The notes beneath the pieces are model-generated. The model was not told the origin of the DNA, searched no databases, and saw only the letters and a program-made list of their open reading frames with translations. Position numbers and translations under genes: made by a program. Source: an uncultured Pelagibacteraceae bacterium (GTDB taxonomy: Bacteria > Pseudomonadota > Alphaproteobacteria > Pelagibacterales > AG-422-B15). From it: a stretch of 64,000 nt of DNA. Each line of letters starts with the position of its first letter. Positions within the stretch are counted from its first letter, which is position 1. Location of the stretch: contig CACMBZ010000001.1 in NCBI GenBank assembly GCA_902612095.1, forward strand, positions 41,311 to 105,310, written 5' to 3'. Below, one piece after another: positions 2,806 through 61,568 of this stretch.

Positions 2806-3363
2806 TTATCTTTCTAGTTGAATATCCCAATATAAGAAATCCATCCAGCTTTCATGCAAAAAGTTAGGAGGAAAAGATCGGCCACATTTATCTAAATCAG
2901 CCATTGTAGGTACTTTTGGAATATTGAGAGGCTTCATACCCGAGTTTTTCAAAAGTTTTCCTCCCTTTTTTACGTTACAACTTGAACATGCTGTTACAAT
3001 ATTTTCCCAAGTTGTTTCACCGCCGTGTGATCTAGGTATAAGATGATCAAATGTTAAATCTTTCTTTGAACCACAATATTGACAACTAAACTTATCACGC
3101 AAAAAAACGTTAAATCTTGAGAATATTGGATTTCTATTTGGCTTGATGTACGTTTTTAGACTAATAACGCTTGGTAAGTACATTTGAAAACTTGGACTTC
3201 TAATTTCTCTTTCATAATTGGATACAATATTTACTCTTCCAAGAACAACGGCTTTTACACTGTCTTGCCAGCACCACAAAGACAGAGGATAATGACTAAG
3301 AGGCCTGAAATCCGAATTTAGTACCAAAGCTGGACATTTTTCTAGAGGAACTGCGATACTCAT
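2806..3363 (-). CDS. HNH endonuclease-domain protein
   Basis: CQYCG...LTFDHLIPRSHGGETTWENIVTACSSCNVKKG is a complete HNH/zinc-finger motif, with an N-terminal domain of about 90 aa. Confidence 0.75.
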   Translation of the reverse strand: MSIAVPLEKCPALVLNSDFRPLSHYPLSLWCWQDSVKAVVLGRVNIVSNYEREIRSPSFQMYLPSVISLKTYIKPNRNPIFSRFNVFLRDKFSCQYCGSKKDLTFDHLIPRSHGGETTWENIVTACSSCNVKKGGKLLKNSGMKPLNIPKVPTMADLDKCGRSFPPNFLHESWMDFLYWDIQLER

Positions 3364-3407: not shown

Positions 3408-4061
3408 TTAATTTGAAAATTTTTCTACTAAGAATTTAATTGCTATGTCTAAGCCGTCTTGAGCAATCGAATGCTGAGTGTTCGGGGAAATATGAGCTTT
3501 AACATCTAAACTTAATTCTGATAACTTTTTTTCAGCTTCAATAGTTTCTTGATAAGGAACCATAGGGTCCATATCTCCATGAATTAGGTAAATTGGAGGT
3601 TTAGACTTTAATTCATTTTTAAGAAGTTCTGGAGCAATTAACCTTCCTGAAAAGCCAACAATTGCTCTCATTGAATTTTCTCTTCTAAGGCCGACATGTA
3701 AACTCATCATTGTGCCTTGACTGAAACCTACGAGCGCCAAATTATCATCACTTAACTCATAATTCTTAAGTTGTTCATCAATAAAACCATTAAGTGTATC
3801 AGCTGCATTTAATACACCTTTCCAAATAGTTGCAGGGTCACCCGATTGAAAATCAAACCATTGATATCCCATTGGGTTTAATCCACATTTTTCTGGTGCG
3901 TTAGGTGATAAAAAAACCGCATCGGGCATTTGAGGCTGAATATAATTAGCAAGGCCAATCAGATCGTTGCCATCTGCGCCGTATCCGTGACAAAATATTA
4001 CTAGTTTTGAAGGTTTTGAAGAGTCTTGGGGTTCTAAAACTGGTCCACTTAAGATTGGCAT
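3408..4061 (-). CDS. alpha/beta hydrolase, phospholipase/carboxylesterase (acyl-protein-thioesterase-like) family
   Basis: 217 aa with GFSQG nucleophile elbow, HG oxyanion region (FCHGYGADG) and C-terminal D...H. Its start overlaps the ecm stop (TAATG). Confidence 0.7.
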   Translation of the reverse strand: MPILSGPVLEPQDSSKPSKLVIFCHGYGADGNDLIGLANYIQPQMPDAVFLSPNAPEKCGLNPMGYQWFDFQSGDPATIWKGVLNAADTLNGFIDEQLKNYELSDDNLALVGFSQGTMMSLHVGLRRENSMRAIVGFSGRLIAPELLKNELKSKPPIYLIHGDMDPMVPYQETIEAEKKLSELSLDVKAHISPNTQHSIAQDGLDIAIKFLVEKFSN

Positions 4062-6016
4062 TAAGATACTTTTCTCTCAACTATGCTCACAATGTCACTC
4101 ATTATATCTTTCAGCTGATAATCCTTTGGAGTATAAACTGCTTGAACTCCATTTTTAATTAAGATCTTTTCATCTTCTGTTGGAATTATACCTCCTACAA
4201 TTACCGGGATATCGTCTACTTTATTTTTTTTCATTTCATTCATAATTTCCTCGACAAGCTGCACATGAGAACCGGATAGAATAGAAAGTCCGATGATGTG
4301 TACATCTTCTTCAACAGATGATTTTACTATTTGTTCTGGTGTTAATCTAATTCCTTCGTACAAAACATCCATTCCACAATCACTCGCACTTACAGCAATT
4401 TGTTCTGCTCCACTAGAATGCCCGTCAAGACCAGGTTTGCCTACAAGAAATTTTATTCTTCTTCCCATCTTATCTGACAATGACTCAACTCTTTTACGTA
4501 TTGGGCTGTAATCGTCATTATTGGATGGTTGAATGTTAGTTATACCAGTCGGTGCTTTGAACTCACCAAAAACATCCCGAAGTACTTGAGACCATTCACC
4601 TGTTGTTACACCTGCTTTTGCAGCTGTAATAGAAGCTTCCATTATGTTATCTCCAGATTTTGCCGCTTCGCTTAATTGATTTAAAGCGCTATCAACCTGT
4701 TTTTGATCTCTGTTTTGTCTCCAATCAATAACTGCTTTTACTTGTTCATTTTCAATTTTTGGATCAATTGTCTCTATGCCTCCATCATTTGATACAAGAG
4801 GTGACTCTTCGGTCTCAACAAACTCATTAACTCCAACAACGATTTGCTCTTTATCATTAATTCTTTTAAGCCTTTCTTTTTGAGAATTGACCAATTCCTG
4901 TTTTAAGTAACCACTTTCAACTGCAGCTACTGCACCACCAATTGATTGAATGTGATTAAATTCTTTCATCGCAGTCTCTTTAAGATTTCTAACCTTTTCA
5001 TCAATCACTTCAGAGCCATTGAATATATCGTCAAAATGTAGGAGATCTGTTTCATACGCAACAATTTGTTGCAATCTTAAGGACCATTGTTGATCCCATG
5101 GTCTTGGCAATCCCATTGCTTCATTCCAAGCTGGTAACTGAACTGCTCTTGCTCTTGCATCCTTTGAGAGAACGACGCCTAGCATTTCAATTAATATTCT
5201 ATATACGTTGTTCTCAGGTTGTTGCTCAGTTAATCCAAGACTGTTTACTTGCATACCATACCTAAATCTTCTGTTTTTAGGATCCTTAACACTATATCTC
5301 TCTTTTGTAATTTCATTCCACAAAGATACAAATGCTCTCATTTTACACATCTCAGTAATAAATCTGATTCCAGAATTAACGAAGAAGCTTATGCGACCTA
5401 CTACATTTTCAAATTCTTCCTCGGATAACACATTTGAGGTTTTAACTTTATCGAGATACGCTACTGCAATTGAAAGACCAAAAGCTAATTCCTGCTCAGG
5501 AGTCGCGCCTACTTCAACTAAATGGTAAGGACATACATTGATTGGATTCCAATTTGGCATTTCTTTAAAAGTAAACGTAATCACGTCAGATATTATTTTT
5601 AAACTTGGATCAGGTGGAAGAATATATGTTCCTCGTGAGAGATATTCTTTTAAGACATCGTTTTGAGTTGTTCCCCGTAATTTATTTCTGTCTATGCCCT
5701 GTTCATCTGCAACGGCTACATATAAACTCAGCAACCATGCAGCTGTAGCATTAATGGTCATTGATGTATTCATTTTATCTAATGGAATTTGATTAAAAAG
5801 CGATCTCATATCGCCAATATGACAGATTGGAACGCCAACTTTGCCAACCTCCCCTTTAGCGAGAATGTGATCACTGTCATACCCAGTTTGAGTAGGTAAA
5901 TCGAACGCTACTGAGATACCTGTTTGACCCTTTGATAGGTTCTTAAGATAGAGTTCATTTGACTTTTTGGCAGACGAATGTCCTGCGTAAGTTCTTATGA
6001 GCCAAGGTTTATCCAT
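4061..6016 (-). CDS. ecm: adenosylcobalamin-dependent acyl-CoA mutase, ethylmalonyl-CoA mutase type (MeaA/Ecm)
   Basis: 651-aa single chain with mutase barrel plus C-terminal B12 domain (GKPGLDGHSSGAEQIA = DxHxxG). The N-terminus PWLIRTYAGHSSAKKSN...GQTGISVAFDLPTQTGYDSD carries RTYAGHS, which I recall as MeaA-like rather than the RQYAGFS of methylmalonyl-CoA mutase. Divergent from ccr. Confidence 0.8.
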   Translation of the reverse strand: MDKPWLIRTYAGHSSAKKSNELYLKNLSKGQTGISVAFDLPTQTGYDSDHILAKGEVGKVGVPICHIGDMRSLFNQIPLDKMNTSMTINATAAWLLSLYVAVADEQGIDRNKLRGTTQNDVLKEYLSRGTYILPPDPSLKIISDVITFTFKEMPNWNPINVCPYHLVEVGATPEQELAFGLSIAVAYLDKVKTSNVLSEEEFENVVGRISFFVNSGIRFITEMCKMRAFVSLWNEITKERYSVKDPKNRRFRYGMQVNSLGLTEQQPENNVYRILIEMLGVVLSKDARARAVQLPAWNEAMGLPRPWDQQWSLRLQQIVAYETDLLHFDDIFNGSEVIDEKVRNLKETAMKEFNHIQSIGGAVAAVESGYLKQELVNSQKERLKRINDKEQIVVGVNEFVETEESPLVSNDGGIETIDPKIENEQVKAVIDWRQNRDQKQVDSALNQLSEAAKSGDNIMEASITAAKAGVTTGEWSQVLRDVFGEFKAPTGITNIQPSNNDDYSPIRKRVESLSDKMGRRIKFLVGKPGLDGHSSGAEQIAVSASDCGMDVLYEGIRLTPEQIVKSSVEEDVHIIGLSILSGSHVQLVEEIMNEMKKNKVDDIPVIVGGIIPTEDEKILIKNGVQAVYTPKDYQLKDIMSDIVSIVERKVS

Positions 6017-6149
6017 TGTTTTTCAACGTTTTTTTTTGGTTTTATTAAATCCTTTTGTTTAAAATGTATATACTAATCTAGCTAAAATGGCTATAAACCT
6101 AGAAAAAAGAAACATTAGTTTTATATATTTACACTACAGGAGCTGATTT

Positions 6150-7385
6150 ATGACCACTGAAGAAAAAGATATTTATGCAATAGGTGAAATTCCACCTCTT
6201 GGTTTTGTCCCTAAGAAAATGCACGCATGGGTAATCAGAAGAGATCGTCATGGAAACCCAATGCAATCATTTAAAGAAGAAGAATTTGATGTTCCTGAAG
6301 TTGGATCCAATGACGTTTTGATATTCGTAATGGCCGCGGGCGTAAACTACAACGGTGTTTGGGCTGGTCTTGGAAAACCTGTATCTACGCTTGATATGAC
6401 TAAAAAAGATTATCACATCGCCGGTTCTGATTGTTCTGGGATAGTTTGGAAAGTTGGTTCTGGTGTAAAAAAATGGAAAGTGGGCGACGAGGTAATCATT
6501 CATGGTATGCAGTGGGATCATGAGGATGCTGAGGTTAATGGTGGTGAACCAATGATATCAAAAACAAATAAGGTCTTTGGTTACGAAACAGCAGATGGAA
6601 CCTTTGCTCAATTCACAGCTGTTCAAGCGCACCAAGTTTTACGTAAGCCACCAAATTTATCTTGGGAAGAAAGTGGCTGTTATATGTTAACTCTTGCAAC
6701 TGCATATAGAATGCTATTTGGCCACGCTCCAAATGAATTAAAGCCAGGTGAGTTTGTTTTAATATGGGGCGCATCGGGTGGTCTTGGAAGCATGGCAGTA
6801 CAACTTGCAAAAATTGTTGGTGCTAAACCAATTGGTATTGTTTCTGATAACTCTAAAATTGATTATGTAAAAGATCTTGGAGCTGTAGGTGTTCTAAACA
6901 GAAAAGATTTTGATTGTTGGGGTGAACATCCTGATATTGATGACGCTGAAACATATGCAAACTATATGAAAGAAGTTAGAAAATTTGGAAAGGCCCTATG
7001 GGAATTTACAGGCAAGGGTAATAATGTTGACATGGTATTTGAGCATCCGGGCGAAACTACCGTTCCTGTCTCATGTTTTGTAGTAAAACCAGGAGGAATG
7101 GTTGTTATTTGTGCTGGTACCACAGGATATAATCTCACATTAGATGCTAGATATCTATGGATGCAAAGTAAAAGACTTCAGGGTTCACACTTTGGAAATT
7201 CAAAGCAAGCGAATGCAGCGAATGAACTTGTTATTGACGGTACATTAGATCCTTGTATGTCAGAGCTTTTTGCATGGAACAATATTCCTGATGCTCATGA
7301 AAAGATGCTTAACAATGAACATAAAGGTGGAAATATGGCTGTCCTTGTTGGCGCTGCAAAAGAAGGACAAAAATCTCTAAACTAG
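6150..7385 (+). CDS. ccr: crotonyl-CoA carboxylase/reductase
   Basis: 411-aa MDR-superfamily enoyl reductase with the long Ccr-type N-terminus (IGEIPPLGFVPKKMHAWVIRRDRHGNP) and GASGGLG NADPH site. Flanked by ecm and an Mcd-type dehydrogenase. Confidence 0.8.
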   Translation: MTTEEKDIYAIGEIPPLGFVPKKMHAWVIRRDRHGNPMQSFKEEEFDVPEVGSNDVLIFVMAAGVNYNGVWAGLGKPVSTLDMTKKDYHIAGSDCSGIVWKVGSGVKKWKVGDEVIIHGMQWDHEDAEVNGGEPMISKTNKVFGYETADGTFAQFTAVQAHQVLRKPPNLSWEESGCYMLTLATAYRMLFGHAPNELKPGEFVLIWGASGGLGSMAVQLAKIVGAKPIGIVSDNSKIDYVKDLGAVGVLNRKDFDCWGEHPDIDDAETYANYMKEVRKFGKALWEFTGKGNNVDMVFEHPGETTVPVSCFVVKPGGMVVICAGTTGYNLTLDARYLWMQSKRLQGSHFGNSKQANAANELVIDGTLDPCMSELFAWNNIPDAHEKMLNNEHKGGNMAVLVGAAKEGQKSLN

Positions 7386-7395
7386 AAAGTTAAAT

Positions 7396-9051
7396 ATGCA
7401 CGAACTAATTTCTAAATGTCAAAAATCCCTTATTACTGTCGATAAGTATTACGATGCTGCCCTGCAACATGTAAGAGGTGAGTTAATTGTTAATGGAAAA
7501 TTATCTCGTGATAATCTAGATAGGGAACAACATGCTGCACATGGCTTATCTTGGGTTGCTGCATATAGAGCTACTTTGAAAGAAATGGTTAATTGGGCCT
7601 CAAACCTAGACTCGACCGGGACGTTTAATGAAACAGAGCAATTAATTTTGCAAATTACTTTTTCGGAATACTGTGCGCAAATTAAATCTGGGATACCAAT
7701 GTCACAACTTGAGTATGTTCGTCCTCAAGATTTAGGATTAAAAAATGGTCTCTTTCAAGAAACAGGGACCGAAGAATTTAATGATCTGATTTTAAATGGC
7801 AATAGTACTGCAGATCGCATGAAACTTGCTCAATTATTAAAAGATGGATTTTCAAGTAAAAACTTTGGTAATAGCGGCCTAGATGAAACTACATCAATAA
7901 TTCAAGAACAATTTAGAAAATTTGTTGAAGATGATGTGACGCCAAACGCTCATGAATGGCATCTTAAAGATAACCTTATTCCGATGTCTGTAATTGAAAA
8001 AATGTCTGAACTTGGTGTATTTGGTCTGACGATACCTGAAGAATACGGTGGACTTGGAATGACAAGATTTGTTGACTGTGTGGTAACTGAGGAACTTGCA
8101 AGGGGTTATATTGGCATTGGCTCACTTGGTACACGCGGCGATATAGCTGCCGAATTATTGATTACAGGTGGCACCGAAGAACAGAAAAATAAATATTTAC
8201 CGAAAATTGCATCTGGTGAAATGCTTCCATGTGCTGTTTTAACCGAACCTCATTCAGGATCTGATATGGGCTCATTCAAAACAAGGGCAGTTGCAAATGG
8301 AGAGCACTATACAATCACAGGAAACAAGACATGGGTTACACATGGAGCTCGAAGTGACGTGATGATGTTATTAGCACGCACAAACCCTGATGAAAAAGGC
8401 TACAAAGGTTTATCAATGTTCCTTGCTGAAAAACAGAGGGGTGATGACGATAATATGTTCCCTGATGAGGGAATTAGTGGTGGCGAAATCGAGGTTTTAG
8501 GCTACAGAGGCATGAAAGAGTACGAAATGGCTTTTGACGGCTTTAAAGTTAAAAAAGAAAATTTACTTGGTGAAAAAGAAGGAAATGGCTTCAAACAAAT
8601 GATGGAAACTTTTGAAGCAGCTCGTATACAAACTGCAGCTAGAGCACTGGGTGTAGCACAATCAGCTTTTGAAACTGCAATGCAATACGCAATAGATAGG
8701 CTAGATACAAATGGCGGTTCGCTGTATGACAAACCTAGAAATGCATCGAAAATTGTTTCTATGGCTACTGAGATTATGGCTGCAAGACAATTAACTTATT
8801 ATGCTGCAAGAGAAAAAGATAAAGGACACAGATGTGATTTGGAAGCAGGAATGGCAAAAATGTTGGCTGCTAGAGTTGCTTGGGCATGCGCAGATAACGG
8901 AGTCCAAATTCATGGAGGTAATGGGTTTGCGCTTGAGTATCCAATAAGTAGAATTTTATGTGACTCCAGAATTTTAAATATATTTGAAGGAACTGCAGAG
9001 ATACAGGCCGACATTGTAACACGTCGACTTGTTTCTACGAACCCTGCTTAA
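7396..9051 (+). CDS. mcd: acyl-CoA dehydrogenase with about 170-aa N-terminal extension, (2S)-methylsuccinyl-CoA dehydrogenase type
   Basis: 551 aa against about 380-400 for ordinary ACADs. The ACAD core runs from about residue 170 (HEWHLKD...GLTIPEEYGG...IFEGTAEIQ). Lies 10 nt downstream of ccr. Confidence 0.7.
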   Translation: MHELISKCQKSLITVDKYYDAALQHVRGELIVNGKLSRDNLDREQHAAHGLSWVAAYRATLKEMVNWASNLDSTGTFNETEQLILQITFSEYCAQIKSGIPMSQLEYVRPQDLGLKNGLFQETGTEEFNDLILNGNSTADRMKLAQLLKDGFSSKNFGNSGLDETTSIIQEQFRKFVEDDVTPNAHEWHLKDNLIPMSVIEKMSELGVFGLTIPEEYGGLGMTRFVDCVVTEELARGYIGIGSLGTRGDIAAELLITGGTEEQKNKYLPKIASGEMLPCAVLTEPHSGSDMGSFKTRAVANGEHYTITGNKTWVTHGARSDVMMLLARTNPDEKGYKGLSMFLAEKQRGDDDNMFPDEGISGGEIEVLGYRGMKEYEMAFDGFKVKKENLLGEKEGNGFKQMMETFEAARIQTAARALGVAQSAFETAMQYAIDRLDTNGGSLYDKPRNASKIVSMATEIMAARQLTYYAAREKDKGHRCDLEAGMAKMLAARVAWACADNGVQIHGGNGFALEYPISRILCDSRILNIFEGTAEIQADIVTRRLVSTNPA

Positions 9052-9057
9052 TTTTAT

Positions 9058-9261
9058 ATGCCAGGTTTTTTATATTACTTATTAATTCCTATATCACTTC
9101 TTGCTGTTTTAGCGGTTTTAGGAACAGGTATTTACGCTATGTTTAAAGGTGGAGATTTTAATAAAAAGTACTCAAATAAACTTATGAGACTTAGAATTAC
9201 TCTGCAGTTTATTGCGATTGTAATAATTATGAGTGCTCTTTACTTTTCAACTAGTTCTTAA
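9058..9261 (+). CDS. HIG1-domain twin-transmembrane-helix small protein
   Basis: 67 aa with two TM helices separated by MFKGGDFNKKYSNKLMRLRI, as in the hypoxia-induced-protein N-terminal domain family. Confidence 0.7.
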   Translation: MPGFLYYLLIPISLLAVLAVLGTGIYAMFKGGDFNKKYSNKLMRLRITLQFIAIVIIMSALYFSTSS

Positions 9262-9824
9262 TGGTAAAACTCAATAAAATTTATACAAGGGCCGGTGATA
9301 AAGGCAAGACAGGGTTAGTATCTGGTAAACGTGTATTTAAGGATAATATAAGAATAAAAGCATACGGGACTGTCGATGAACTGAATTCTATACTTGGAAT
9401 TTTAAACACGAGTGCCAAATCATCTCTGAAAAAAATAATTTCAGAAATACAAAATGACTTATTTGATTTAGGTGCTGATCTCGCAACTCCAGTTGAAAAA
9501 AAACCAAAATATAAACCGCTACGCGTTACAAGCAAGCAGGTTACAAGAATTGAAAAAACAATTGACAAATATAACGCAAAGTTAGCACCCCTTAATTCTT
9601 TTGTGCTACCGGGAGGGTCTCAGTCTGCGGCATTTTTACACAACGCAAGAACTGTAACGCGCCGAGCTGAAACTCAGATTGTCGCACTTGCAAAAAAAGA
9701 AGAGGTCAACGAAGAAGCAATTAAATATATCAATCGGTTATCTGATTTATTTTTTGTTTTATCGAGAGTTGAAAACAACAATGGCAAAAAAGATATTTTG
9801 TGGAAACCTGGTAAGAATGTATAA
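9261..9824 (+). CDS. pduO: ATP:cob(I)alamin adenosyltransferase, PduO/MMAB type
   Basis: The N-terminal IYTRAGDKGKTGL motif and 187-aa length are typical of PduO-type ATR. Its start overlaps the upstream stop. Confidence 0.85.
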   Translation: MVKLNKIYTRAGDKGKTGLVSGKRVFKDNIRIKAYGTVDELNSILGILNTSAKSSLKKIISEIQNDLFDLGADLATPVEKKPKYKPLRVTSKQVTRIEKTIDKYNAKLAPLNSFVLPGGSQSAAFLHNARTVTRRAETQIVALAKKEEVNEEAIKYINRLSDLFFVLSRVENNNGKKDILWKPGKNV

Positions 9825-9867
9825 TTTATGTTTACTCAACTAAAAAAGATATTATAACACATAAATC

Positions 9868-10617
9868 ATGAAAATTTTAGTCCCTGTCAAAAGAGTTATT
9901 GATCCGTACGTTAACATCAGAGTTAAATCTGATCAAACTGGTGTTGAAACTGAGAATGTAAAAATGTCTATGAACCCCTTTTGTGAAATTGCAGTTGAAG
10001 AGGCAATTAGATTAAAAGAAGCTGGTAAAGCTGAAGAGATCATCGCTGTTTCAATCGGCAATCAATCTTGTCAAGAAACTATTCGAACGGCTCTTGCAAT
10101 GGGAGCTGACCGAGGAATACATGTGCTCACAGAAGAAAAAGTTGAGCCTATTTCAATTGCAAAAATTCTAGCAAAAATTTGTGAAAGCGAGTCACCTGGA
10201 CTAGTGATATCCGGAAAGCAAGCGATTGATGGAGATAACAATCAAACTGGTCAGATGCTTGCTGCACTAACAGATATGCCTCAAGGAACTTTTGCTTCAA
10301 AAGTAGAAATCGACGGCGACAAGGTTAAAGTCACCAGAGAAATAGATGGAGGTTTACAAACTGTAAATCTGAATATGCCCGCTATTATTACCACCGATTT
10401 AAGATTGAATGAACCTAGGTATGCTTCTCTGCCCAATATAATGAAAGCAAAAAAGAAGCCAATTGATCAAAAATCTCCTGAAGACTATGGAGTTGATGTT
10501 ACACCTAGAGTAAGTATTTTAAAAGTTATTGAACCTCCAAAGCGTCAGGCTGGAATCAAAGTCGAGAATGTTGGAGATCTTGTAGAAAAATTAAAAAATG
10601 AGGCAGGAGTTATATGA
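9868..10617 (+). CDS. etfB: electron transfer flavoprotein beta subunit
   Basis: 249 aa; [19 protein letters not shown]... is the canonical EtfB N-terminus. Confidence 0.9.
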
Positions 10618-11543
10618 CATCACTTTTTTATATCGAGCATGCAAACGGAAAGGTCAGCGATCAAAGTTTAAAAGCTATAACAGCAGCGTCTCAAATTGAA
10701 GGCGATGTTCACGGACTTATTGTGGGCTCAAATATTGATGAAGCTGTTGCGGAGGCTTCAAAAATTAATGGATTGAGTAAATTACTCCACTTGGATGATG
10801 CAGCATTTGATAATGTTTTGGCTGAAAAACTTACTCAAGTTATTTTTAATATTGCCGGCGATTATGACTACTTTTTGGCTGCAGCAACAACAACTGGTAA
10901 AAATGTGATGCCTAGACTTGCTGCAAAACTTGATGTCTCTCAAATATCAGAGATCGTTGCTGTTGAAAGTGCAGATACATTTATTAGAACAATTTATGCT
11001 GGTAACGCTATTGCAACTGTACAAACATCTGACGCAAAGAAAGTTCTCACGGTTAGACCAACTGCTTTCAAAGCTGCAACAACCGACTCTGCTGAATGCG
11101 AGGTTGCAAAGATAAATGCTGAGAATATTCCATCAATTTCAGAATTTGTGGGCGAAGAGCTAACAAAATCTGATAGGCCAGAACTTACTTCTGCAAAGAC
11201 AATTATTTCAGGTGGACGTGGAATGCAAAATGGAGAAAACTTTGAACTTTTGGATAAAGTAGCTGAAAAACTTGGAGCTGCTGTTGGAGCATCTCGAGCT
11301 GCCGTTGATGCAGGCTTTGTTCCAAATGATTATCAAGTCGGGCAAACTGGTAAAGTTGTAGCACCCGAACTGTACATAGCGGTCGGAATATCAGGAGCGA
11401 TCCAGCACTTGGCTGGCATGAAAGACTCAAAAATTATAGTTGCCATAAATAAAGATGAAGAAGCACCTATATTTGATGTGGCAGACTATGGTTTGGTAGC
11501 AGACTTGTTTCAAGTTCTTCCCGAATTAGAACAAGCCTTATAA
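10614..11543 (+). CDS. etfA: electron transfer flavoprotein alpha subunit
   Basis: 309 aa with C-terminal FAD domain (ISGGRGM...[11 protein letters not shown]...[29 protein letters not shown]). 4-nt overlap with etfB. Confidence 0.9.
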
Positions 11544-21247: not shown

Positions 21248-22008
21248 ATATGACTGAAATACTAATTGTTAAATGCTTAAGCGATAATTATGCTTATATA
21301 TACTCAAATAAAAATGGGGATGCATTTGTTGTTGATCCTTCTGAAGCAGGTCCTGTAATTGATGTTCTAAATAAACACAGACTTAATTTAAAATTCATAC
21401 TAAATACTCATCATCATTTTGATCATGTAGGTGGAAATTTTGAACTTAAAGAAAAGTATGAGTGCAAAATAGTTGGCAGCAAAAAAGATTTTGAGAGAAT
21501 ACCAGGAATTGATATACAGGTTTCAGAGGGTGATATTTGGAATTTTGATGAACACAATGCTCAGATAATTGAAATACCTGGGCATACTACGGGCCACATC
21601 GCTTTTTATTTTGAATCCCTAAAACTTGTTTTTACAGGTGACACGCTATTTTCACTTGGATGTGGTAGACTTTTTGAAGGTTCACCAGAAATGATGTGGA
21701 AATCTCTTACAAAATTAAGGGATCTACCTGATGAAACAAAAATTTACTGTGGCCATGAATATACTTTAAGTAATGGAAATTTTATAAGCTCTATTTACCC
21801 GTCGGATGAAATAGAATCAAAAATAGACCGTCTGAAAAGCCTAAATAAACAAAACATACCATCTATTCCATCAACAATTGGGGATGAAAAGAGATTAAAT
21901 GTTTTCTTAAAAGCAGATGATGATGATTTGATCAAGTCACTGGGGCTTACGGGAAAAAGTCCAGAAGAAGTATTCGGTCACATAAGAAATCTCAAAGATT
22001 CCTTTTAA
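21244..22008 (+). CDS. gloB: hydroxyacylglutathione hydrolase (glyoxalase II)
   Basis: Metallo-beta-lactamase fold with THHHFDHVGG and length 254 aa. Confidence 0.85.
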   Translation: MNMTEILIVKCLSDNYAYIYSNKNGDAFVVDPSEAGPVIDVLNKHRLNLKFILNTHHHFDHVGGNFELKEKYECKIVGSKKDFERIPGIDIQVSEGDIWNFDEHNAQIIEIPGHTTGHIAFYFESLKLVFTGDTLFSLGCGRLFEGSPEMMWKSLTKLRDLPDETKIYCGHEYTLSNGNFISSIYPSDEIESKIDRLKSLNKQNIPSIPSTIGDEKRLNVFLKADDDDLIKSLGLTGKSPEEVFGHIRNLKDSF

Positions 22009-22727
22009 GTAAAATATTGTCCACCGTTTGCAGATATCGTAGAACCTGTTATAAAGCCCGCTTCATCACTAGCAAGGAATGTAACTATTCGTGAAACCTC
22101 ATCAACTGTTCCAAGCCTTCCTACAGGAATTTTTCCAATTAAACTTTTCATAAAATCCTCGGAGGCATCGGCTAGAATTTCAGTATCGATATAACCAGGT
22201 GCAATAGCGTTAACTGTAATATTCTTTCTAGCAGTTTCTTGCGCTAAGGCTTTGGTAAAACCTAGTAAACCAGCTTTTGCCGCACTATAATTTATTAGAC
22301 CCATCTCACCTTTTTGACCGTTAATAGAAGAAATGCTGATTATTCTTCCAAAAGATTTTTCTCTCATGCCTTCAAGTACACATCTTGTCATATAAAAAAC
22401 TGAATCTAAGTCAGTTCTTATTACATCATCCCATTGTTCAACTGACATTTTATGAGCCATTGAAGCTTTGGAAATGCCGGCATTATTCACTAAAATGTCA
22501 ACAGTACCCAGCTTATCAGCAACTTGCTTTACGCCCGCTTCACATGCAGCTGCATCAGCAACATTCCATTGAAATACCTCAATACCGTTTTCGGATGAAA
22601 ACTTATTTGCTGCATCTGAATTTGAACTATAGGTTGCAGCAACATTGCACCCCTCCTTTTTTAAAGCAAGAGATATTGCAGCACCTATTCCCCTTGTTCC
22701 TCCAGTTACTAACGCTACTTTAGACAT
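22005..22727 (-). CDS. phaB: acetoacetyl-CoA reductase (SDR)
   Basis: 240 aa; VALVTGGTRGIGAAI, NNAGI, YSAAKAG. Lies directly downstream of the thiolase. Confidence 0.8.
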   Translation of the reverse strand: MSKVALVTGGTRGIGAAISLALKKEGCNVAATYSSNSDAANKFSSENGIEVFQWNVADAAACEAGVKQVADKLGTVDILVNNAGISKASMAHKMSVEQWDDVIRTDLDSVFYMTRCVLEGMREKSFGRIISISSINGQKGEMGLINYSAAKAGLLGFTKALAQETARKNITVNAIAPGYIDTEILADASEDFMKSLIGKIPVGRLGTVDEVSRIVTFLASDEAGFITGSTISANGGQYFT

Positions 22728-22736
22728 AATTTTCTC

Positions 22737-23909
22737 CTATCGTTCGACGCACAAAGCGACACCCATGCCTCCACCAATGCATAATGTGGCAAGTCCTTTT
22801 TTAGCGTCCTGTCTTTTCATTTGATTTAATAATGTTACAAGAATTCTAGCTCCTGACGCACCAATTGGATGTCCTATAGCAATCGCTCCTCCGTTAACAT
22901 TAACTTTTGAAACATCCCATCCCATTTCTTTATTTACTGCACAAGATTGAGCGGCAAATGCTTCATTTGATTCAATTAAATCTAAATCAGAAACATCCCA
23001 CCCTGCTTTATCAAGAGCTTTTCTGCTTGCAGGTATAGGTCCTGTTCCCATCACAGATGGATCAACCCCAGCACTTGACCAGGATACAATTCTTGCCATA
23101 GGCTCAAGGTTTCTTTTTTTCATTTCATCTGAGGACATTACTGCCAGAGCAGCTGCGCCATCGTTTATACCACTTGCATTTGCTGCTGTAACTGTTCCCT
23201 CTTTTGCAAATGCAGGTCTTAAAGATGAGATTTTTTCTAATTGAACATTGTCTTTAATATATTCATCACTATCAAAAACTACTGTCTCTTTTCTTGATGG
23301 GACTTCAACTGGAACAATTTCATCCTTAAATACTCCATCTGCTTTAGCCTTACTTGCTTTCTGTTGTGAGTTAAAAGCAAATTCATCTTGTTGATCTCTA
23401 GTAATTTGCCATTGTTGTGCAACATTTTCAGCAGTTGTTCCCATGTGATATCCATTAAAAGCATCCCACAAACCATCTTTGATCATTGAGTCGATCATCT
23501 TATCATCACCCATTTTAGTACCATTTCTTAGGTGCATACAGTGCGGGGATTGACTCATACTTTCTTGTCCACCAGCAATAATAATATTTGCATCGCCATT
23601 CTTTATAGATTGATAGGCCAAAGCAACACTTCTTAAGCCAGATCCACAAACTTGATTAACTAGCCATGCTGGGGTCTCTTTATTTAAACCAGCATTTATT
23701 GATGCTTGTCTAGCAGGGTTTTGACCAGTTGCTGCAGTTAGTACTTGTCCAAGTATTACCTCATCTACATCACCACCTTCAATGCCTGATCTATTAAGCG
23801 TTTCTTTTATAACTATTGTGCCTAAATCGTGTGCTGGCATACCTGATAAAGATCCATTAAATGAACCAACGGCTGTTCTAACGGCAGATGTAATAAATAC
23901 TTCACTCAT
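22737..23909 (-). CDS. phaA: acetyl-CoA acetyltransferase (biosynthetic thiolase)
   Basis: 390-aa thiolase II ([41 protein letters not shown]). Confidence 0.85.
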
Positions 23910-23921
23910 AACTTTTCCTTT

Positions 23922-24641
23922 TTATTCGCCAATTATTGGCAATTTTTGTGATCTGGAGGCATCAAGATAACTTGCGGAGTGAATTTTGCAACTATTATTT
24001 AGGCTGATAACGAGTGGATTTGCAGTTGGTATTTCTAAGCTTGTTATGTCTTCATCAGATACATCAAACAAGTACTTACATAGAGCTCTTAAGCTGTTTC
24101 CATGTGCTGAAATAATAGTGGTATTTTTTAGTACTAAAGGTTTTATAGAATTTTCCCAGTAAGGAATTACTCTCGCATACGTATCTTCTAAACATTCCGT
24201 CATGGGTAAATTATTTATTCCTTTATATAAATCATCTTTATTAGGATTCATTTCACTATCAATTGGTAGTGCAGGTGGTGGTGTACTGTAGCCTCTCCTC
24301 CATTTTAAAAACTGATCTTCACCATATTTTTTTTTAACTTCATCTTTGTTTAATCCTTGCAGTGCTCCATAGTGTCTTTCATTTAATTCCCAGGCAGTTT
24401 CTGTGTGAAGATTATATATATTTAATTCCTCAAGAATTATTTGAAGCGTATTTTGTGCCCTTTTTAAAAATGATGTAAATGCAAATGAAGGAACTATTTC
24501 AGCTTCTTTGAGTAACAATGCTGACTTTAATGCCTCTTTTTTTCCTAAATCGTCTAATTCTACATCAACCCATCCGGTAAAAATATTTTTTACGTTCCAA
24601 ACACTTTTACCGTGTCTGATTAATATCAGTGTATTAGACAT
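23922..24641 (-). CDS. gpmA: 2,3-bisphosphoglycerate-dependent phosphoglycerate mutase
   Basis: LIRHGKSVWNVKNIFTGW, LNERHYGALQGLNKDE..KYGEDQ..WRRGY..PP, and AHGNSLRAL, collinear with full-length dPGM. Confidence 0.85.
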   Translation of the reverse strand: MSNTLILIRHGKSVWNVKNIFTGWVDVELDDLGKKEALKSALLLKEAEIVPSFAFTSFLKRAQNTLQIILEELNIYNLHTETAWELNERHYGALQGLNKDEVKKKYGEDQFLKWRRGYSTPPPALPIDSEMNPNKDDLYKGINNLPMTECLEDTYARVIPYWENSIKPLVLKNTTIISAHGNSLRALCKYLFDVSDEDITSLEIPTANPLVISLNNSCKIHSASYLDASRSQKLPIIGE

Positions 24642-25583
24642 TTATTTGTTTACTTGGTTAACTACATTATTATTTAAAAGATAATCGACCATTTGCTCTG
24701 CGATTTGTATAGCAACTTTTTCTTGCGCCTCTGCAGTACTAGCGCCGATGTGAGGTGTCATTACAACTTTTTTCATACCAGAAAATATACTGTCAGTTTG
24801 TGGCTCTTTCTCATAAACATCGCAGCCATATCCTCCTAAACCATTTTTATCAATTGCATTCTTAACATCATTTTCATTTACAATTCCACCTCTCGCACAA
24901 TTAATAATAATTGCTGTTCTTTTAATTGTTTTAAGGGTGTCTTTATTAATCATATATTTTGATTTATCTGATAGTTTATTATGAAAAGTTATAATATCTG
25001 AATGTAACAAAATTTCTTCAAAAGATACTTTTTCAACTTTATATTTTTTTTGTTCTGTATCACTTAATGTAGCACTATGAACAATAACATTCATTCCATA
25101 TGCTTGTGATATTTCAGAAATTTTTTTTCCTATATTCCCAAATCCTACGATGCCAATAGTTTTGCCCAACATCTCAGATCCAATGAAGTTTTTTTTCTCC
25201 CATTTTTTACTGTGCATTGACTCATTTGCCTCTGTAATTTTTCTCATTAATGCATGTATAATAGAAAATGTAAGTTCGGCTGTTGCTTGAACATTTCCAA
25301 GAGGAGTGTTCATGACTACGATGTTATTTTTGGTAGCTGAGTCAAGGTCAACATTGTCAACCCCTACGCCTGGCCTACCAATAACTTTCAGATTTTTAGC
25401 GCTGCTTATTATTTTATCAGTTACAGTGACTGCTGATCTAATTACTAACCCGGCATAATCTACGATTTCTCTAGAAAGCTCGTCTTCACTAAGACCTGTT
25501 TTCTGAACATATTCAATGTTGTTTTCATCAAATACTTTAAAAACAGCGTCAGAAACATTATCGGCAATTAGTACTTTATTCAC
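24642..25583 (-). CDS. serA: D-3-phosphoglycerate dehydrogenase, short form without ACT/ASB regulatory domains
   Basis: 313-aa D-2-hydroxyacid dehydrogenase (GIVGFGNIGKK, NCARGG, TPHIGAST) that ends right after the catalytic domain. Operon context with serC. Confidence 0.8.
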   Translation of the reverse strand: MNKVLIADNVSDAVFKVFDENNIEYVQKTGLSEDELSREIVDYAGLVIRSAVTVTDKIISSAKNLKVIGRPGVGVDNVDLDSATKNNIVVMNTPLGNVQATAELTFSIIHALMRKITEANESMHSKKWEKKNFIGSEMLGKTIGIVGFGNIGKKISEISQAYGMNVIVHSATLSDTEQKKYKVEKVSFEEILLHSDIITFHNKLSDKSKYMINKDTLKTIKRTAIIINCARGGIVNENDVKNAIDKNGLGGYGCDVYEKEPQTDSIFSGMKKVVMTPHIGASTAEAQEKVAIQIAEQMVDYLLNNNVVNQVNK

Positions 25584-26740: not shown

Positions 26741-26744
26741 TAAA

Positions 26745-43701: not shown

Positions 43702-44097
43702 ATGCAAAACCCGATATCAAGATGGCATGATGTTGTTAGTCTTCGTGACTATAATGCTCTGACAGAGATACTAGATGAACATGTTATTTTTTATTCTCCA
43801 GTTGTTTATACTCCTCAGCGAGGAAAAGATATTACATTAAAATATTTAATGGCTGCATCAGAAGTATTTAATGCTTCGAATTTTAAATATCACAAAGAAA
43901 TAATTAGAGAAACAAATGCCTGCCTTGAATTTACTTTGACTATTGAAGATACTGATATTAATGGAATCGACCTCATTACATGGAATGAAGCTGGACTTAT
44001 TACTGAATTTAAAGTATTTATCAGACCACTTCAGGGTGTTAACATAATACACAAGATGATGGGCAACATGTTAGAGAGTTTTAAAAATGTCAGTTGA
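43702..44097 (+). CDS. NTF2/SnoaL-like fold small protein, function unknown
   Basis: 131 aa. The pattern W......D...L.E.L.E.V.FYSPV... is typical of SnoaL-like/NTF2-like proteins. Assigned by resemblance only. Confidence 0.5.
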   Translation: MQNPISRWHDVVSLRDYNALTEILDEHVIFYSPVVYTPQRGKDITLKYLMAASEVFNASNFKYHKEIIRETNACLEFTLTIEDTDINGIDLITWNEAGLITEFKVFIRPLQGVNIIHKMMGNMLESFKNVS

Positions 44098-55773: not shown

Positions 55774-55841
55774 GATCTTAATAATTTTAATAGAGTCTGA
55801 TATTGTAGATTAATTGTAATCTATGGCAATGGCGGAAAAGT

Positions 55842-56075
55842 ATGAGAAAACTTGATCTTCACGGCTTCACACTCGAAGAGGCTTATCAAGAATTCACTGA
55901 TTTTATTTACGCTGCTTATCAAGAGAATATTTCTAAAGTGGAAATAATAACTGGAAAAAGTGGTCGCATAAGGCAAGAATTTCCTCATTGGGCAGAGAGC
56001 AGTCATCAAATAAGGTATATCGAAGCTAGCTGGCACGAGGGCAGTTATATCGTGAAAATTCAAAAAAAGTATTGA
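55842..56075 (+). CDS. stand-alone Smr-domain protein (77 aa)
   Basis: LDLHGFTLEEA...VEIITGKSG matches the Smr LDLHG...G(K/R)G pattern. Confidence 0.7.
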   Translation: MRKLDLHGFTLEEAYQEFTDFIYAAYQENISKVEIITGKSGRIRQEFPHWAESSHQIRYIEASWHEGSYIVKIQKKY

Positions 56076-59609: not shown

Positions 59610-61568
59610 TTATTTTTTTCTTGGAATTAAAGCCCAATAATCAAGACTTAACAAAACGGACGGATCAAAACGCTTGTTACTATCTTGATGTTGAAACTGA
59701 TAAGCCTGTGCATCGCCAATTCCATTTGTTCTGACTCGAATAGCACCTAATGATTCTGATACTTCAACTTTATCTAAAATTAAACTCCAGGCAAAAACAG
59801 TTGTTCCCGCAAAACACGGTGATGCGTGGGTTCCACCGTTGATCGCAATAATTTTAAAAGCATTTGAAAGTCCATTAAACGATAAAGCTCTTGTTAAACT
59901 TATAACATGACCGCCGTAAACAATTCTTTTTCCAAACCTACCACCTTTTTCAACAAAATGGTTAAAGTGAACTTTTGCATTGTTCTGGTATAATTTTGTT
60001 GCCATCATATGTTCAGCTTCCTCAACTGTCATACCATCAATATGATTTATTTTTTCGTTAATAGAATAATCCTCATAACAAAGATCAGAGCCTGAGGCTT
60101 TATAATCATATCCTGTACAATCAAAATCATATTCTTTTGCAATTTCTACAACCTCCTCACTTGTAAGCTCTTTATTTAATTCTGGTATAGACGGTTCTGG
60201 TTTATTTAGGTTTCTATTTTTTTTTCTAACCATAACCCACCTTTTATAATCAATAACTGGTTCGCCATGCTGGTTAGTGCCTACAGAGTGAACATAAACT
60301 ACTCCATTTTCTCCACTTGAATTTTCTTTAATGCCAATCACTTCTGAAGTTGAGCTAATTGTATCACCTGGATAAGCTGGCTTTAAAAACTTACATTCTG
60401 CGTAACCTAAATTAGCAATTGCATTTAAAGAGATATCGGGGACAGTTTTACCAAAAGCTATATTAAATAAAAGAAAATCGTCAATTGGCGATTTTTCTAA
60501 TGAGAGTTTTTTTGCAAACTCATCTGAGCAGTGAAGGGCGTACCTTGAACCGTATAAAGCCGTATAAAGTGCACAATCTCCATATGTTATTGTTCGTGGA
60601 GTTGCATGTATTATTTTTTGTCCTAGCTTAAAATTTTCAAAAAAATTACCAATTTTATATTTACTTGAAGAAGTTTGTATAACTTCTGATTGATCTAGTT
60701 CTGTAACTTTTGAAACAAGCAATTCTGCTTCTATAATTCGTTTTGCATGATTTACGTGTAATTCCTCTATCTGACTGCCTTCAAACGTAATTACTCCAAC
60801 ATTTGGATCCTTTTTTCTTGCATCCTCAAAGGCTGCAACAATTCGTTTTGCTTTGTCTAGTTGTTCAGCCGTAGGGGTAAATATTTTATTGCATATTTGT
60901 ATTTGTCCGGGGTGTATTAAGGTTTTACCATCAAATCCGAGACCATGACTATAGATGCACTCTTCTTCAAAGCCATTAGCGTCTCTGATGTCATTAAAAA
61001 CTCCATCAAGTAGTGATAATTTGTAGGCTTTTGTTGCCATCATACATTTCTCAAAACTTGTGACTAATGCAGTTCTTTTTAGTTCTTCCTCTATACCCAA
61101 CTCTGCAGACAAGTCATTAGTTCCCATTACAAAACATTTTAAGCATTTTGATGATTTTGCAATATCATACGCGTTTACAATGGATAGAGCTGTTTCCATC
61201 ATAACCCAAATTTTAGTTTCTTTATTTTTAAGATATTTTTCAAAAGCTTTAACATCTTTAGCTTCATTTACTTTAGGAATTAATATTGCATCGGGATTAC
61301 ATTTGTCCAAGACCTTAATATCTATTTTACCATCATCAGTATCCAAAGCATTTACTCTTATCACCTGTTCCTTATTTTTGTTTACACCAGAATTTATAAT
61401 TTCGATAATTGCTGCGCGTGCATCATTTCTGGCATTTGCAGCTACCGAGTCTTCTAAGTCGTAAATAATTGCATCTACATCAAGCGTACTGCTTTTTTTT
61501 AATGCTTTTGGATTAGATCCAGGAACATAAAGTACGCTTCTTCTTGGTTTTCTTACATCTTGTCTCAT
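59610..61568 (-). CDS. fusion protein: N-terminal CitE-like/HpcH malyl-CoA (beta-methylmalyl-CoA) lyase or thioesterase domain plus C-terminal MaoC double-hotdog mesaconyl-CoA-hydratase-like domain
   Basis: One uninterrupted 652-codon ORF. Residues about 10-283 are CitE-like: RSVLYVPGSNPKAL, DLEDSV, WVMMET, MGTNDL, GFDGKTLIHPGQ. Residues 284-305 form a linker. Residues 306-652 are a MaoC-type two-hotdog enzyme of about 347 aa, the size of Mch: IIHATPRTITYGDCALYTALYGSRYAL, GKTVPDISLNAIANLGYA, YPGDT. Confidence 0.8.
   Translation of the reverse strand: MRQDVRKPRRSVLYVPGSNPKALKKSSTLDVDAIIYDLEDSVAANARNDARAAIIEIINSGVNKNKEQVIRVNALDTDDGKIDIKVLDKCNPDAILIPKVNEAKDVKAFEKYLKNKETKIWVMMETALSIVNAYDIAKSSKCLKCFVMGTNDLSAELGIEEELKRTALVTSFEKCMMATKAYKLSLLDGVFNDIRDANGFEEECIYSHGLGFDGKTLIHPGQIQICNKIFTPTAEQLDKAKRIVAAFEDARKKDPNVGVITFEGSQIEELHVNHAKRIIEAELLVSKVTELDQSEVIQTSSSKYKIGNFFENFKLGQKIIHATPRTITYGDCALYTALYGSRYALHCSDEFAKKLSLEKSPIDDFLLFNIAFGKTVPDISLNAIANLGYAECKFLKPAYPGDTISSTSEVIGIKENSSGENGVVYVHSVGTNQHGEPVIDYKRWVMVRKKNRNLNKPEPSIPELNKELTSEEVVEIAKEYDFDCTGYDYKASGSDLCYEDYSINEKINHIDGMTVEEAEHMMATKLYQNNAKVHFNHFVEKGGRFGKRIVYGGHVISLTRALSFNGLSNAFKIIAINGGTHASPCFAGTTVFAWSLILDKVEVSESLGAIRVRTNGIGDAQAYQFQHQDSNKRFDPSVLLSLDYWALIPRKK

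Follow-up and report, generated by a model that had tools for sequence, protein, structure and literature searches.

Does the ethylmalonyl-CoA (EMC) pathway extend to the SAR11 bacteria, and if so, do its genes form a unit of their own? The question is raised by a window of 64 kb, the whole stretch of DNA analysed here, from an uncultured Pelagibacteraceae (SAR11) lineage. The EMC route is a well-known pathway of acetate assimilation that is not usually linked to SAR11, and none of the papers searched discusses it in this group, though public databases already name the proteins. An earlier note on this DNA had proposed a compact, self-sufficient module in which ccr, ecm and mcd, encoding crotonyl-CoA carboxylase/reductase, ethylmalonyl-CoA mutase and (2S)-methylsuccinyl-CoA dehydrogenase, are clustered with genes for cofactor supply and electron transfer. 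The reading that we consider probable is that an EMC-specific trio, carried by a widespread Pelagibacteraceae lineage, lies inside an old syntenic block whose adenosyltransferase (ATR) and electron-transfer flavoprotein (ETF) genes are general-purpose neighbours.

The layout of the locus agrees exactly with that first described. The ecm (meaA) gene (4061-6016, minus strand; 651 aa) diverges across a 133-nt gap (6017..6149) from ccr (6150-7385, plus strand; 411 aa; TIGR01751), and ccr is followed after 10 nt by mcd (7396-9051, plus; 551 aa; match to 6ES9). Continuing on the plus strand are genes for a twin-transmembrane-helix (HIG1-like) protein (9058-9261; 67 aa), a PduO-type ATP:cob(I)alamin ATR (9261-9824; 187 aa), EtfB (9868-10617; 249 aa; PF01012, Pfam ETF) and EtfA (10614-11543; 309 aa; PF00766, Pfam ETF_alpha). 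Gaps of 6 nt and 43 nt follow mcd and atr, respectively, whereas the HIG1-like gene overlaps atr by 1 nt and etfB overlaps etfA by 4 nt. The family scores also agree: the HIG1-like peptide reaches 77.9 bits against NF033233 (cut-off 49) and matches PF04588, and ATR reaches 211.7 bits against TIGR00636 (cut-off 108.5). Because the gaps are of 43 nt or less, ccr-mcd-hig-atr-etfBA probably form one transcript, with ecm and the adjoining est gene probably transcribed divergently from the 133-nt region. Promoter and terminator scans at the locus scored no better than shuffled sequence, and the operon structure is therefore read from spacing alone.

By every available sequence test, the products of the trio are Ccr, Ecm and Mcd, as the earlier note had held. 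Ccr scores 558.3 bits against the TIGR01751 equivalog, 180 bits above the cut-off of 378.6, and matches the solved Ccr 4GI2 with 609 bits and 62% identity. Residues aligned to the CO2-binding Asn81, Glu171 and His365 of K. setae Ccr are kept, while the position of Phe170 is occupied by Tyr, as it is in 4GI2; an identical protein is named crotonyl-CoA carboxylase/reductase in both NCBI (GIR05772.1) and JGI. Mcd matches 6ES9, the Paracoccus denitrificans enzyme (PdMCD), end to end (678 bits, 59% identity over 525 aligned residues). Its acyl-CoA dehydrogenase (ACAD) core begins at residue 164, which leaves the long N-terminal extension noted previously (~165 aa), and the match covers this extension: over the first 200 aligned positions, most of them in the extension, identity is ~45%. 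Mcd retains the catalytic Glu535 of PdMCD, its Ala285 and all three substrate arginines (Arg252, Arg376, Arg421), and an identical protein bears the name (2S)-methylsuccinyl-CoA dehydrogenase in NCBI (GIR05773.1). Ecm begins with MxKPWLIRTYAGHS, bears the MM_CoA_mutase and B12-binding domains in a single chain, and has a DGHSSG motif that agrees with the cobalt-ligand pattern DxHxxG. Its score of 555.7 bits is 320 bits short of the methylmalonyl-CoA mutase (MCM) equivalog cut-off (876), and it groups with the ccr-linked mutases, being 60-65% identical to the ccr-divergent mutases of 35 non-SAR11 loci, nearly all Rhodobacterales, versus 35-37% to the MCMs of P. shermanii and human. In 84 alignment columns, residues invariant across all 41 of 41 ccr-linked mutases differ in both MCMs, including RTYAGHS against RQYAGFS. 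For homologues 78-79% identical to Ecm, JGI uses the name '(2R)-ethylmalonyl-CoA mutase' and NCBI the name 'protein meaA [Pelagibacteraceae bacterium]'.

These data bear directly on the view that the three proteins are paralogues with other activities, namely an enoyl reductase that does not carboxylate, a mutase acting on methylmalonyl- or isobutyryl-CoA, and an acyl-CoA dehydrogenase of the generic kind. NCBIfam has no equivalog model for Ecm or Mcd, and therefore neither reaches a curated cut-off of its own family; in addition, the pocket residue Phe287 of PdMCD is replaced by Leu282 in the Mcd of this sub-lineage. Set against the Ccr score and CO2-site residues, the grouping of the mutase, the full-length Mcd match with its arginines, the adjacency of the trio genes, and the presence of a mesaconyl-CoA hydratase in the same window, a paralogous origin is very unlikely.

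The AT-rich, SAR11-type host supposed from the outset is borne out by the distribution of the locus. All matches of 84-100% identity come from single-cell genomes (SAGs) and metagenome-assembled genomes (MAGs) of Pelagibacteraceae/Pelagibacterales, which include contigs of 1.3-1.4 Mb with ~34% GC, and the identical Ccr occurs on 856 contigs, the longest of 1.41 Mb. The lineage carrying the trio is an abundant, widespread and uncultured branch of SAR11. Across 45 Pelagibacterales loci, est, ecm, ccr, mcd, atr, etfB and etfA keep the same order and strands (45/45), with all seven present in 38; since the flanking genes have diverged to 47-60% amino-acid identity, this arrangement is not due to chance. 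The slightly higher GC at 4-12 kb (0.37, versus 0.28-0.34 in the flanks) and the next-best matches, which are Rhodobacterales with 68% identity or less, might raise the suspicion of a chimeric assembly, of contamination or of a recently acquired island atypical of SAR11. The GC3 of the trio (0.25-0.26), however, equals that of its neighbours, so that recent transfer is not indicated, and its overall GC is shared by other conserved genes (atpD, sdhA, phaA). Moreover, the locus recurs in dozens of independent SAGs, MAGs and 1.3-1.4 Mb contigs, and sequence identity within the trio falls together with that of its flanks, to as low as 70-84%. On these grounds the suspicion, to which we attach next to no probability, was rejected.

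Is the cluster then a purpose-built, self-sufficient EMC operon, with ATR and ETF recruited beside the enzymes that they serve? The tight, co-oriented spacing from ccr to etfA and the exact conservation of the arrangement in all 45 SAR11 loci are as such an origin would predict, and Ecm needs adenosylcobalamin (AdoCbl) while Mcd needs an electron acceptor. The same neighbourhood, however, exists without the trio. Sinorhizobium meliloti has the order DsbB, HNH ... twin-helix, ATR, (rhomboid), EtfB, EtfA, Hbd, TlpA, and Azospirillum has twin-helix, ATR, EtfB, EtfA, Hbd; in neither do ccr, ecm or mcd stand beside this run. Gene order and orientation agree with those of the SAR11 block, where, as in S. 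meliloti, DsbB and an HNH endonuclease lie upstream and TlpA downstream, and ATR is 56-58% identical to the Rhizobiales and Azospirillum proteins in matching gene context. The SAR11 block differs in that est, ecm, ccr and mcd stand between the HNH and twin-helix genes, and in that hbd is missing after etfA. Conversely, atr and etfBA never occur within 10 kb of the paired ccr/ecm genes in the Rhodobacterales loci compared, and mcd does so in one locus only (L046). Judged from these gene orders, twin-helix, ATR, EtfB, EtfA and TlpA, with DsbB and HNH upstream, are an ancestral alphaproteobacterial housekeeping arrangement. Since the block exists without the trio in S. meliloti and Azospirillum, the trio adjoins an older block, and the adjacency of ATR and ETF is therefore no evidence of recruitment. 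Together with the dispersal of the remaining EMC genes (below), this makes a purpose-built operon improbable: of the module first proposed, the adjacency of the genes stands, and self-sufficiency and recruitment do not. Within the favoured arrangement of trio and older block, ATR probably serves Ecm by supplying AdoCbl, and ETF probably takes electrons from Mcd, as general ACAD biochemistry would suggest.

Two further elements of the locus adjoin ecm. The est gene (3408..4061, minus), whose start codon shares 1 nt with the ecm stop, encodes an Abhydrolase_2 carboxylesterase (alpha/beta-hydrolase; PF02230, 145.9 bits), and the closest solved structure is carboxylesterase 4FHZ (195 bits), a Rhodobacter sphaeroides enzyme. 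In 41 SAR11 loci est is the next gene downstream of ecm, and no est-type gene stands beside ecm in the Rhodobacterales loci compared. The ecm-ccr intergenic region holds a 24-nt motif, TGGCTATAAACCTAGAAAAAAGAA (6088-6111), which is present at no other position of the window, shares sequence with a weak -35-like hexamer, is kept across SAR11 loci in which Ecm is no more than 77-79% identical, and is duplicated in loci L031, L033 and L037.

The window also holds EMC genes beyond those listed earlier. About 10 kb from the trio lie phaB (22005..22727, minus), encoding an acetoacetyl-CoA reductase (TIGR01829, 321.6 bits; cut-off 302.1), and phaA (22737..23909, minus), encoding a PhaA-type thiolase, acetyl-CoA acetyltransferase (TIGR01930, 487.6 bits versus 240.6; NF004206, 555.5 bits, under its cut-off of 688). 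Some 48 kb away, a gene that overlaps asd by 4 nt and adjoins sdhCDAB (59610..61568, minus; Pfam HpcH_HpaI, MaoC_dehydratas and MC_hydratase) encodes a 652-aa fusion of a CitE/HpcH-like acyl-CoA lyase domain (residues ~7-280) and a mesaconyl-CoA hydratase, Mch (~301-651). The C-terminal 350 residues match full length the Mch structures 4E3E (432 bits) and 8HGN (beta-methylmalyl-CoA dehydratase; 391 bits), though here the enzyme is not free-standing. The TIM-barrel lyase domain, fused to Mch unlike Mcl1, CLYBL and RipC, keeps their DLED, ETA, D of gtnDlsa and IHPxQ motifs. Among solved structures it scores highest with the malyl-CoA/beta-methylmalyl-CoA lyase of M. extorquens (5UGR, 135 bits; compare also Mcl1 4L9Y), followed by CLYBL (121 bits); its alignment with CLYBL and RipC extends over the whole domain, and the ~23-residue insertion of Mcl1-type lyases is missing. 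As it also scores under all curated family cut-offs (CitE, 198 versus 443; haloarchaeal Mcl, 51 versus 500), the domain may instead act as a thioesterase or as a different acyl-CoA lyase. When 1.84 billion representative proteins were searched, the 150 best matches included one cluster with the full-length fusion in the same order, and the fusion is almost restricted to this lineage. An independent fusion of Mch and a CitE-like domain in reverse order (P0129) argues for a functional connection of these domains.

Arranged as a pathway, PhaA and PhaB would convert two acetyl-CoA to (R)-3-hydroxybutyryl-CoA in the first and second steps, from which a dehydratase encoded outside the window would form crotonyl-CoA. 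Ccr is predicted to convert crotonyl-CoA, NADPH and CO2 to ethylmalonyl-CoA, an epimerase encoded elsewhere would act next, and Ecm with AdoCbl would yield methylsuccinyl-CoA. Mcd would then form mesaconyl-CoA, passing electrons to its putative partner ETF; the Mch domain of the fusion would give beta-methylmalyl-CoA, and the CitE-like domain would probably cleave this to glyoxylate and propionyl-CoA. Five or more further EMC steps lie outside the window: with its main ORFs annotated, it contains no epimerase, crotonyl-CoA-forming dehydratase (crotonase/PhaJ), pccAB, mcm or malyl-CoA thioesterase gene, in keeping with the absences listed earlier, and none occurs within ~4 kb beyond its left or ~10 kb beyond its right end.

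Such a route need not replace the glyoxylate shunt. Malate synthase is reported from all SAR11 subclades, and isocitrate lyase is described as a hallmark with mosaic losses (PMC10030771; bioRxiv 10.1101/2023.02.22.529538), which is consistent with an auxiliary role, either alongside isocitrate lyase, the situation in Paracoccus denitrificans, or mainly as a source of propionyl-CoA and glyoxylate (a precursor of glycine) from C4 units, these being 3-hydroxybutyrate, storage polymer or crotonyl-CoA derived from fatty acids. The nearby phaA and phaB point the same way, but the window gives no sign of aceA or glcB. As a general expectation, moreover, streamlined genomes of 1.3-1.4 Mb seldom hold two anaplerotic routes, and an auxiliary role is accordingly entertained only as a tentative possibility.

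Compared with the EMC pathway of R. sphaeroides, Methylobacterium extorquens and P. denitrificans, the SAR11 version has the same Ccr, Ecm/MeaA and Mcd, as well as phaA and phaB; the divergent ecm-ccr pairing is common to Rhodobacterales loci, and one Rhodobacterales Mch is 51% identical to that of SAR11. Several differences are equally evident. Firstly, ccr is followed directly by mcd in SAR11, whereas mcd is missing from the surrounding 10 kb in 34 of the 35 non-SAR11 loci (mostly Rhodobacterales) that have a full-length ccr-linked mutase. Secondly, Mch forms one protein with a CitE-like lyase domain rather than standing alone beside a separate Mcl1, and ccr is without an adjoining TetR-type regulator. 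Additionally, Mcd departs from the P. denitrificans enzyme at Phe287, and the host, unlike those of the known EMC systems, has a streamlined genome of ~1.35 Mb and 34% GC.

Every ORF of the locus was found exactly at the coordinates, lengths and spacings given in the earlier note, and the domain assignments made there for each ORF agree with family and domain searches. Specifically, a 651-aa mutase that unites the mutase barrel and the B12-binding domain in one chain (Ecm; 4061-6016, minus strand) is encoded divergently, across a gap of 133 nt, from a 411-aa MDR-family reductase (Ccr; 6150-7385, plus strand), which is followed on the same strand by a 551-aa acyl-CoA dehydrogenase with its core starting at residue 164 (Mcd; 7396-9051). 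Four support genes lie downstream, likewise on the plus strand, and encode a twin-helix/HIG1 peptide (hig; 9058-9261), a PduO-type adenosyltransferase (ATR; 9261-9824), EtfB (9868-10617) and EtfA (10614-11543), each with the domain content previously described. Spacings of 10 nt between ccr and mcd, 6 nt between mcd and hig and 43 nt between atr and etfB, together with overlaps of 1 nt (hig/atr) and 4 nt (etfB/etfA), suggest that ccr through etfA are co-transcribed.

Generic promoter and terminator scans performed no better than on shuffled sequence, and an Rfam scan did not find a B12 riboswitch, its sole matches being one tRNA and one SAM-alpha riboswitch (RF00521; 19411-19487, plus strand; 44.7 bits against 36), the latter directly upstream of metX-metW. 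Within the divergent ecm-ccr intergenic region, a 24-nt motif, TGGCTATAAACCTAGAAAAAAGAA (6088-6111, plus strand), occurs only once in the window. Kept across SAR11 loci with an Ecm identity of 77-79% and duplicated in the three most divergent loci (L031, L033 and L037), this motif is a candidate regulatory site. On the other side of ecm, the start of est, a gene of the carboxylesterase family (3408-4061, minus strand), shares 1 nt with the stop codon of ecm. The adjacency of est and ecm is kept in 41 SAR11 loci, and no carboxylesterase-family gene adjoins ecm in the Rhodobacterales loci; a role for this putative carboxylesterase as an EMC-pathway thioesterase is conceivable.

Comparison with characterized relatives points to each member of the ecm, ccr and mcd trio being a signature enzyme of the ethylmalonyl-CoA (EMC) pathway. 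Firstly, the reductase scores 558.3 bits against the TIGR01751 equivalog (cut-off 378.55) and has 62% identity, across 407 aligned residues, to the Methylobacterium extorquens Ccr of known structure (4GI2). The CO2-binding residues of carboxylating enoyl-CoA reductases are Asn81, Phe170, Glu171 and His365 in the numbering of Kitasatospora setae Ccr. Alignment to this protein (6NA3) places the same residues at the Asn81, Glu171 and His365 positions of the window Ccr, while the Phe170 position holds Tyr, as in 4GI2. Taken together, the equivalog score, the identity to 4GI2 and the kept Asn, Glu and His argue, in agreement with the earlier note, for a Ccr rather than a non-carboxylating enoyl reductase.

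Secondly, the single mutase chain carries both PF01642 and PF02310 as well as the DxHxxG motif, its DGHSSG aligning to the DGHDRG of methylmalonyl-CoA mutase (MCM), and lies 320 bits under the MCM equivalog cut-off, with scores of 287 bits for HCM and 138 bits for IcmF. It is 35-37% identical to the MCMs of P. shermanii and human and 60-65% identical to the ccr-divergent mutases of 35 non-SAR11 loci, nearly all of them from Rhodobacterales. An empirical Ecm signature, defined as the columns invariant in 41 of 41 ccr-linked mutases and differing from both of these MCMs, comprises 84 alignment columns, among them those of RTYAGHS (RQYAGFS in MCM), and the window mutase shares all of them. Homologues 78-79% identical to it are independently named '(2R)-ethylmalonyl-CoA mutase' by JGI and 'protein meaA [Pelagibacteraceae bacterium]' by NCBI, and the mutase encoded beside ccr in Rhodobacter was reportedly identified as Ecm by Erb et al. 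in 2008. On the grounds of its closer kinship to ccr-linked mutases than to MCMs and its position below the MCM cut-off, the protein is predicted to be Ecm and not an MCM, ICM or HCM, in agreement with the original assignment.

Thirdly, the dehydrogenase aligns over residues 15-546 to the structure of Paracoccus denitrificans Mcd (6ES9; 678 bits, 59% identity), including the N-terminal extension of approximately 170 residues; the ACAD N domain begins at residue 164, and the extension aligns to its P. denitrificans counterpart. In this alignment, with the residue numbers of 6ES9 agreeing with those of the P. denitrificans Mcd paper (PMC5798300), the arginine cluster Arg252, Arg376 and Arg421 and the catalytic Glu535 are kept. 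Within the methyl-branch pocket, Ala285 is kept and Phe287 is replaced by Leu at residue 282; Leu occupies this position not only in the window but also in 32 SAR11 loci, and Phe is found there in 12 other SAR11 loci as well as in a single locus from Rhodobacterales. The overall identity, the three substrate arginines and Glu535 are those expected of an Mcd with its characteristic N-terminal extension, and the protein is accordingly best described as a predicted Mcd.

A scan of species-representative genomes revealed that Ccr at 84-100% identity is confined to single-cell genomes and MAGs of Pelagibacteraceae/Pelagibacterales, the next matches being those of Rhodobacterales at 68% or less. The exact Ccr protein is present on 856 contigs, the longest of 1.41 Mb, and the exact Mcd protein on at least 1000 contigs. 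All 45 SAR11 loci compared share one gene order, coq7, HNH, est, ecm <> ccr, mcd, hig, atr, etfB, etfA, tlpA, argH, lysA, and 38 of them are long enough for est through etfA to be fully visible. Over these loci, identity falls as low as 84% for Ccr, 70% for Mcd and 47% for the flanking LysA, and the trio has the same GC3 as the genes around it, in a window of 33.9% GC. Because the order is kept while the flanks have diverged and GC3 matches, the locus is old in the SAR11 clade; recent horizontal transfer of the trio is ruled out by this GC3 match and by co-divergence with the flanks.

The support genes have a separate history, as indicated by comparison with annotated Rhizobiales and Azospirillum replicons. 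A 3.7-Mb replicon of Sinorhizobium meliloti carries, in order, DsbB, an HNH endonuclease and, further along, a twin-transmembrane-helix protein, ATR, (rhomboid), EtfB, EtfA, Hbd and TlpA, and Azospirillum carries the twin-helix protein, ATR, EtfB, EtfA and Hbd; no copy of ccr, ecm or mcd flanks the block in either case. The Rhodobacterales loci pair ccr with ecm, have no atr or etfBA within 10 kb, and include mcd in a single instance. Most simply, est-ecm <> ccr-mcd can be read as sitting inside a pre-existing housekeeping block, and the support genes are older than the arrangement of the trio in SAR11. The earlier note had proposed a compact, self-sufficient EMC module; the identities of Ccr, Ecm and Mcd stand, and a dedicated module is not supported. 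Because S. meliloti and Azospirillum carry the block without the trio, the adjacency of ATR and ETF is inherited context and gives no evidence of such a module. ATR nonetheless probably serves Ecm by supplying adenosylcobalamin, and ETF probably serves Mcd by accepting its electrons. As for an etf locus free of the trio within SAR11, a search with the EtfB of the most divergent locus as query gave no relative below 80% identity, the trio was present in both of the contexts inspected (four loci), and a scan of viral contigs yielded one unrelated high-GC contig only. The HNH endonuclease gene of the window (2806-3363, minus strand) encodes a stand-alone protein of 185 aa that weakly resembles IscB in its HNH region. 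Its placement with respect to DsbB is that of the HNH endonuclease gene in S. meliloti, so it is a conserved gene of the chromosome rather than a mobile element.

Further genes of the pathway lie elsewhere in the window. At 22005-22727 lies phaB, which scores above the cut-off of its family and adjoins a PhaA-type thiolase gene (22737-23909). A 652-aa protein encoded beside sdhCDAB, with a 4-nt overlap with asd (59610-61568, minus strand), fuses a CitE-like lyase to mesaconyl-CoA hydratase (Mch). Residues 301-651 form a full-length Mch of double hot-dog MaoC fold (PF19315, PF01575), scoring 432 bits against 4E3E and 391 bits against 8HGN, a beta-methylmalyl-CoA dehydratase, and residues 7-280 form a CitE/HpcH-like acyl-CoA lyase domain. 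Since the product of Mch is the substrate of a beta-methylmalyl-CoA lyase, we consider it somewhat probable that the fused lyase domain cleaves beta-methylmalyl-CoA. Its best solved match is 5UGR, the malyl-CoA/beta-methylmalyl-CoA lyase of M. extorquens (135 bits). The domain lacks, however, an insertion of approximately 23 residues found in Mcl1-type lyases, such that the 5UGR alignment falls into two pieces, whereas its alignments with CLYBL and RipC run unbroken over the full length; it passes no curated cut-off, the haloarchaeal Mcl model giving 51 bits against 500. It may instead be a malyl-CoA thioesterase, for which we know of no solved structure, or have a broader, CLYBL-like activity. 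An exhaustive search against 1.84 billion representative proteins listed, among its best 150 matches, one full-length cluster of same-order fusions (77% identical). The search also found two junction-spanning fragments (48-50% identity) and a single fusion of reverse order, Mch followed by a CitE-like domain (P0129, 725 aa). The scarcity of same-order fusions among those 150 matches suggests that the fusion is nearly confined to the Pelagibacteraceae lineage.

The earlier note had seen no epimerase, crotonase/PhaJ, pccAB or mcm in the window, and annotation of the main ORFs agrees: no epimerase, (R)-enoyl-CoA hydratase, pccAB, mcm, malyl-CoA lyase/thioesterase, aceA or glcB was found in the window, in approximately 4 kb further left or in approximately 10 kb further right. 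One epimerase candidate, a 131-aa ORF at 43702-44097, proved to be SnoaL-like and not of the VOC family. A CoA-acylating methylmalonate-semialdehyde dehydrogenase (54280-55773, minus strand; 669 bits against 449) is encoded beside mdh-sucCDAB-lpd and would be a further source of propionyl-CoA or acetyl-CoA, implying a propionyl-CoA sink somewhere in the genome. Between this gene and sdhB, where the window has a gap of 520 nt (55774-56293), a closely related strain (L087, 17401-18916) carries an extra gene for a 335-aa short-chain dehydrogenase and a small Smr-domain gene. Just beyond the left edge of the window, at a distance of approximately 2.2-4 kb, locus L001 (846-2642) encodes a 598-aa AMP-forming acyl-CoA synthetase. 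Lastly, gpmA, a short SerA-like dehydrogenase gene and serC (604 bits, cut-off 477) adjoin phaA/phaB at 23922-26818 on the minus strand. Serine-biosynthesis genes are reported missing in SAR11 subclade I isolates, and the presence of these genes here raises the possibility that the window lineage may be prototrophic for glycine and serine.

The central carbon metabolism of SAR11 is usually described as a TCA cycle with a glyoxylate shunt. The route proposed here would be the textbook EMC pathway, with PhaA, PhaB, Ccr, Ecm, Mcd and the Mch domain identified by homology; we infer that the lyase domain performs the cleavage, that ATR supplies adenosylcobalamin, that ETF accepts the electrons, that the genes are arranged in an operon and that the missing steps exist. 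It is possible, if rather doubtful, that in a globally abundant SAR11 clade the isocitrate-lyase shunt has been replaced by this CO2-fixing, B12-dependent pathway, with its last specific steps performed by a lineage-restricted fused hydratase-lyase. If so, some of the cells of the most numerous heterotroph in the ocean would conditionally consume vitamin B12 and co-assimilate inorganic carbon. Published statements on the B12 need of SAR11 conflict: the group is 'supposed to neither require B12' (PMC8552899), is genomically B12-auxotrophic (PMC9296465) and is without MetH and MetE (PMC12478193). The predicted adenosylcobalamin-dependent Ecm, together with an adenosyltransferase, would provide one concrete B12-dependent enzyme in SAR11. 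Similarly, Ccr would be a carboxylase in SAR11 and might account for some of the CO2 that heterotrophs incorporate in the dark.

Among full-text papers outside subscription journals, none was found that links SAR11 to the EMC pathway or to Ccr, and the recent pangenome papers on SAR11 confine themselves to the glyoxylate shunt, serABC and phaABC (including PMC10030771; bioRxiv 10.1101/2023.02.22.529538). NCBI and JGI records of Pelagibacterales MAGs already give the exact proteins their correct names. The EMC pathway is itself textbook knowledge, and all of its enzymes are well characterized. The value of the observation consequently lies in physiology and ecology: the occurrence of EMC genes in SAR11 is correct, ecologically relevant and under-discussed, and involves no new biochemistry. 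Set against the known pathway, the lyase-hydratase fusion alone is structurally unusual.
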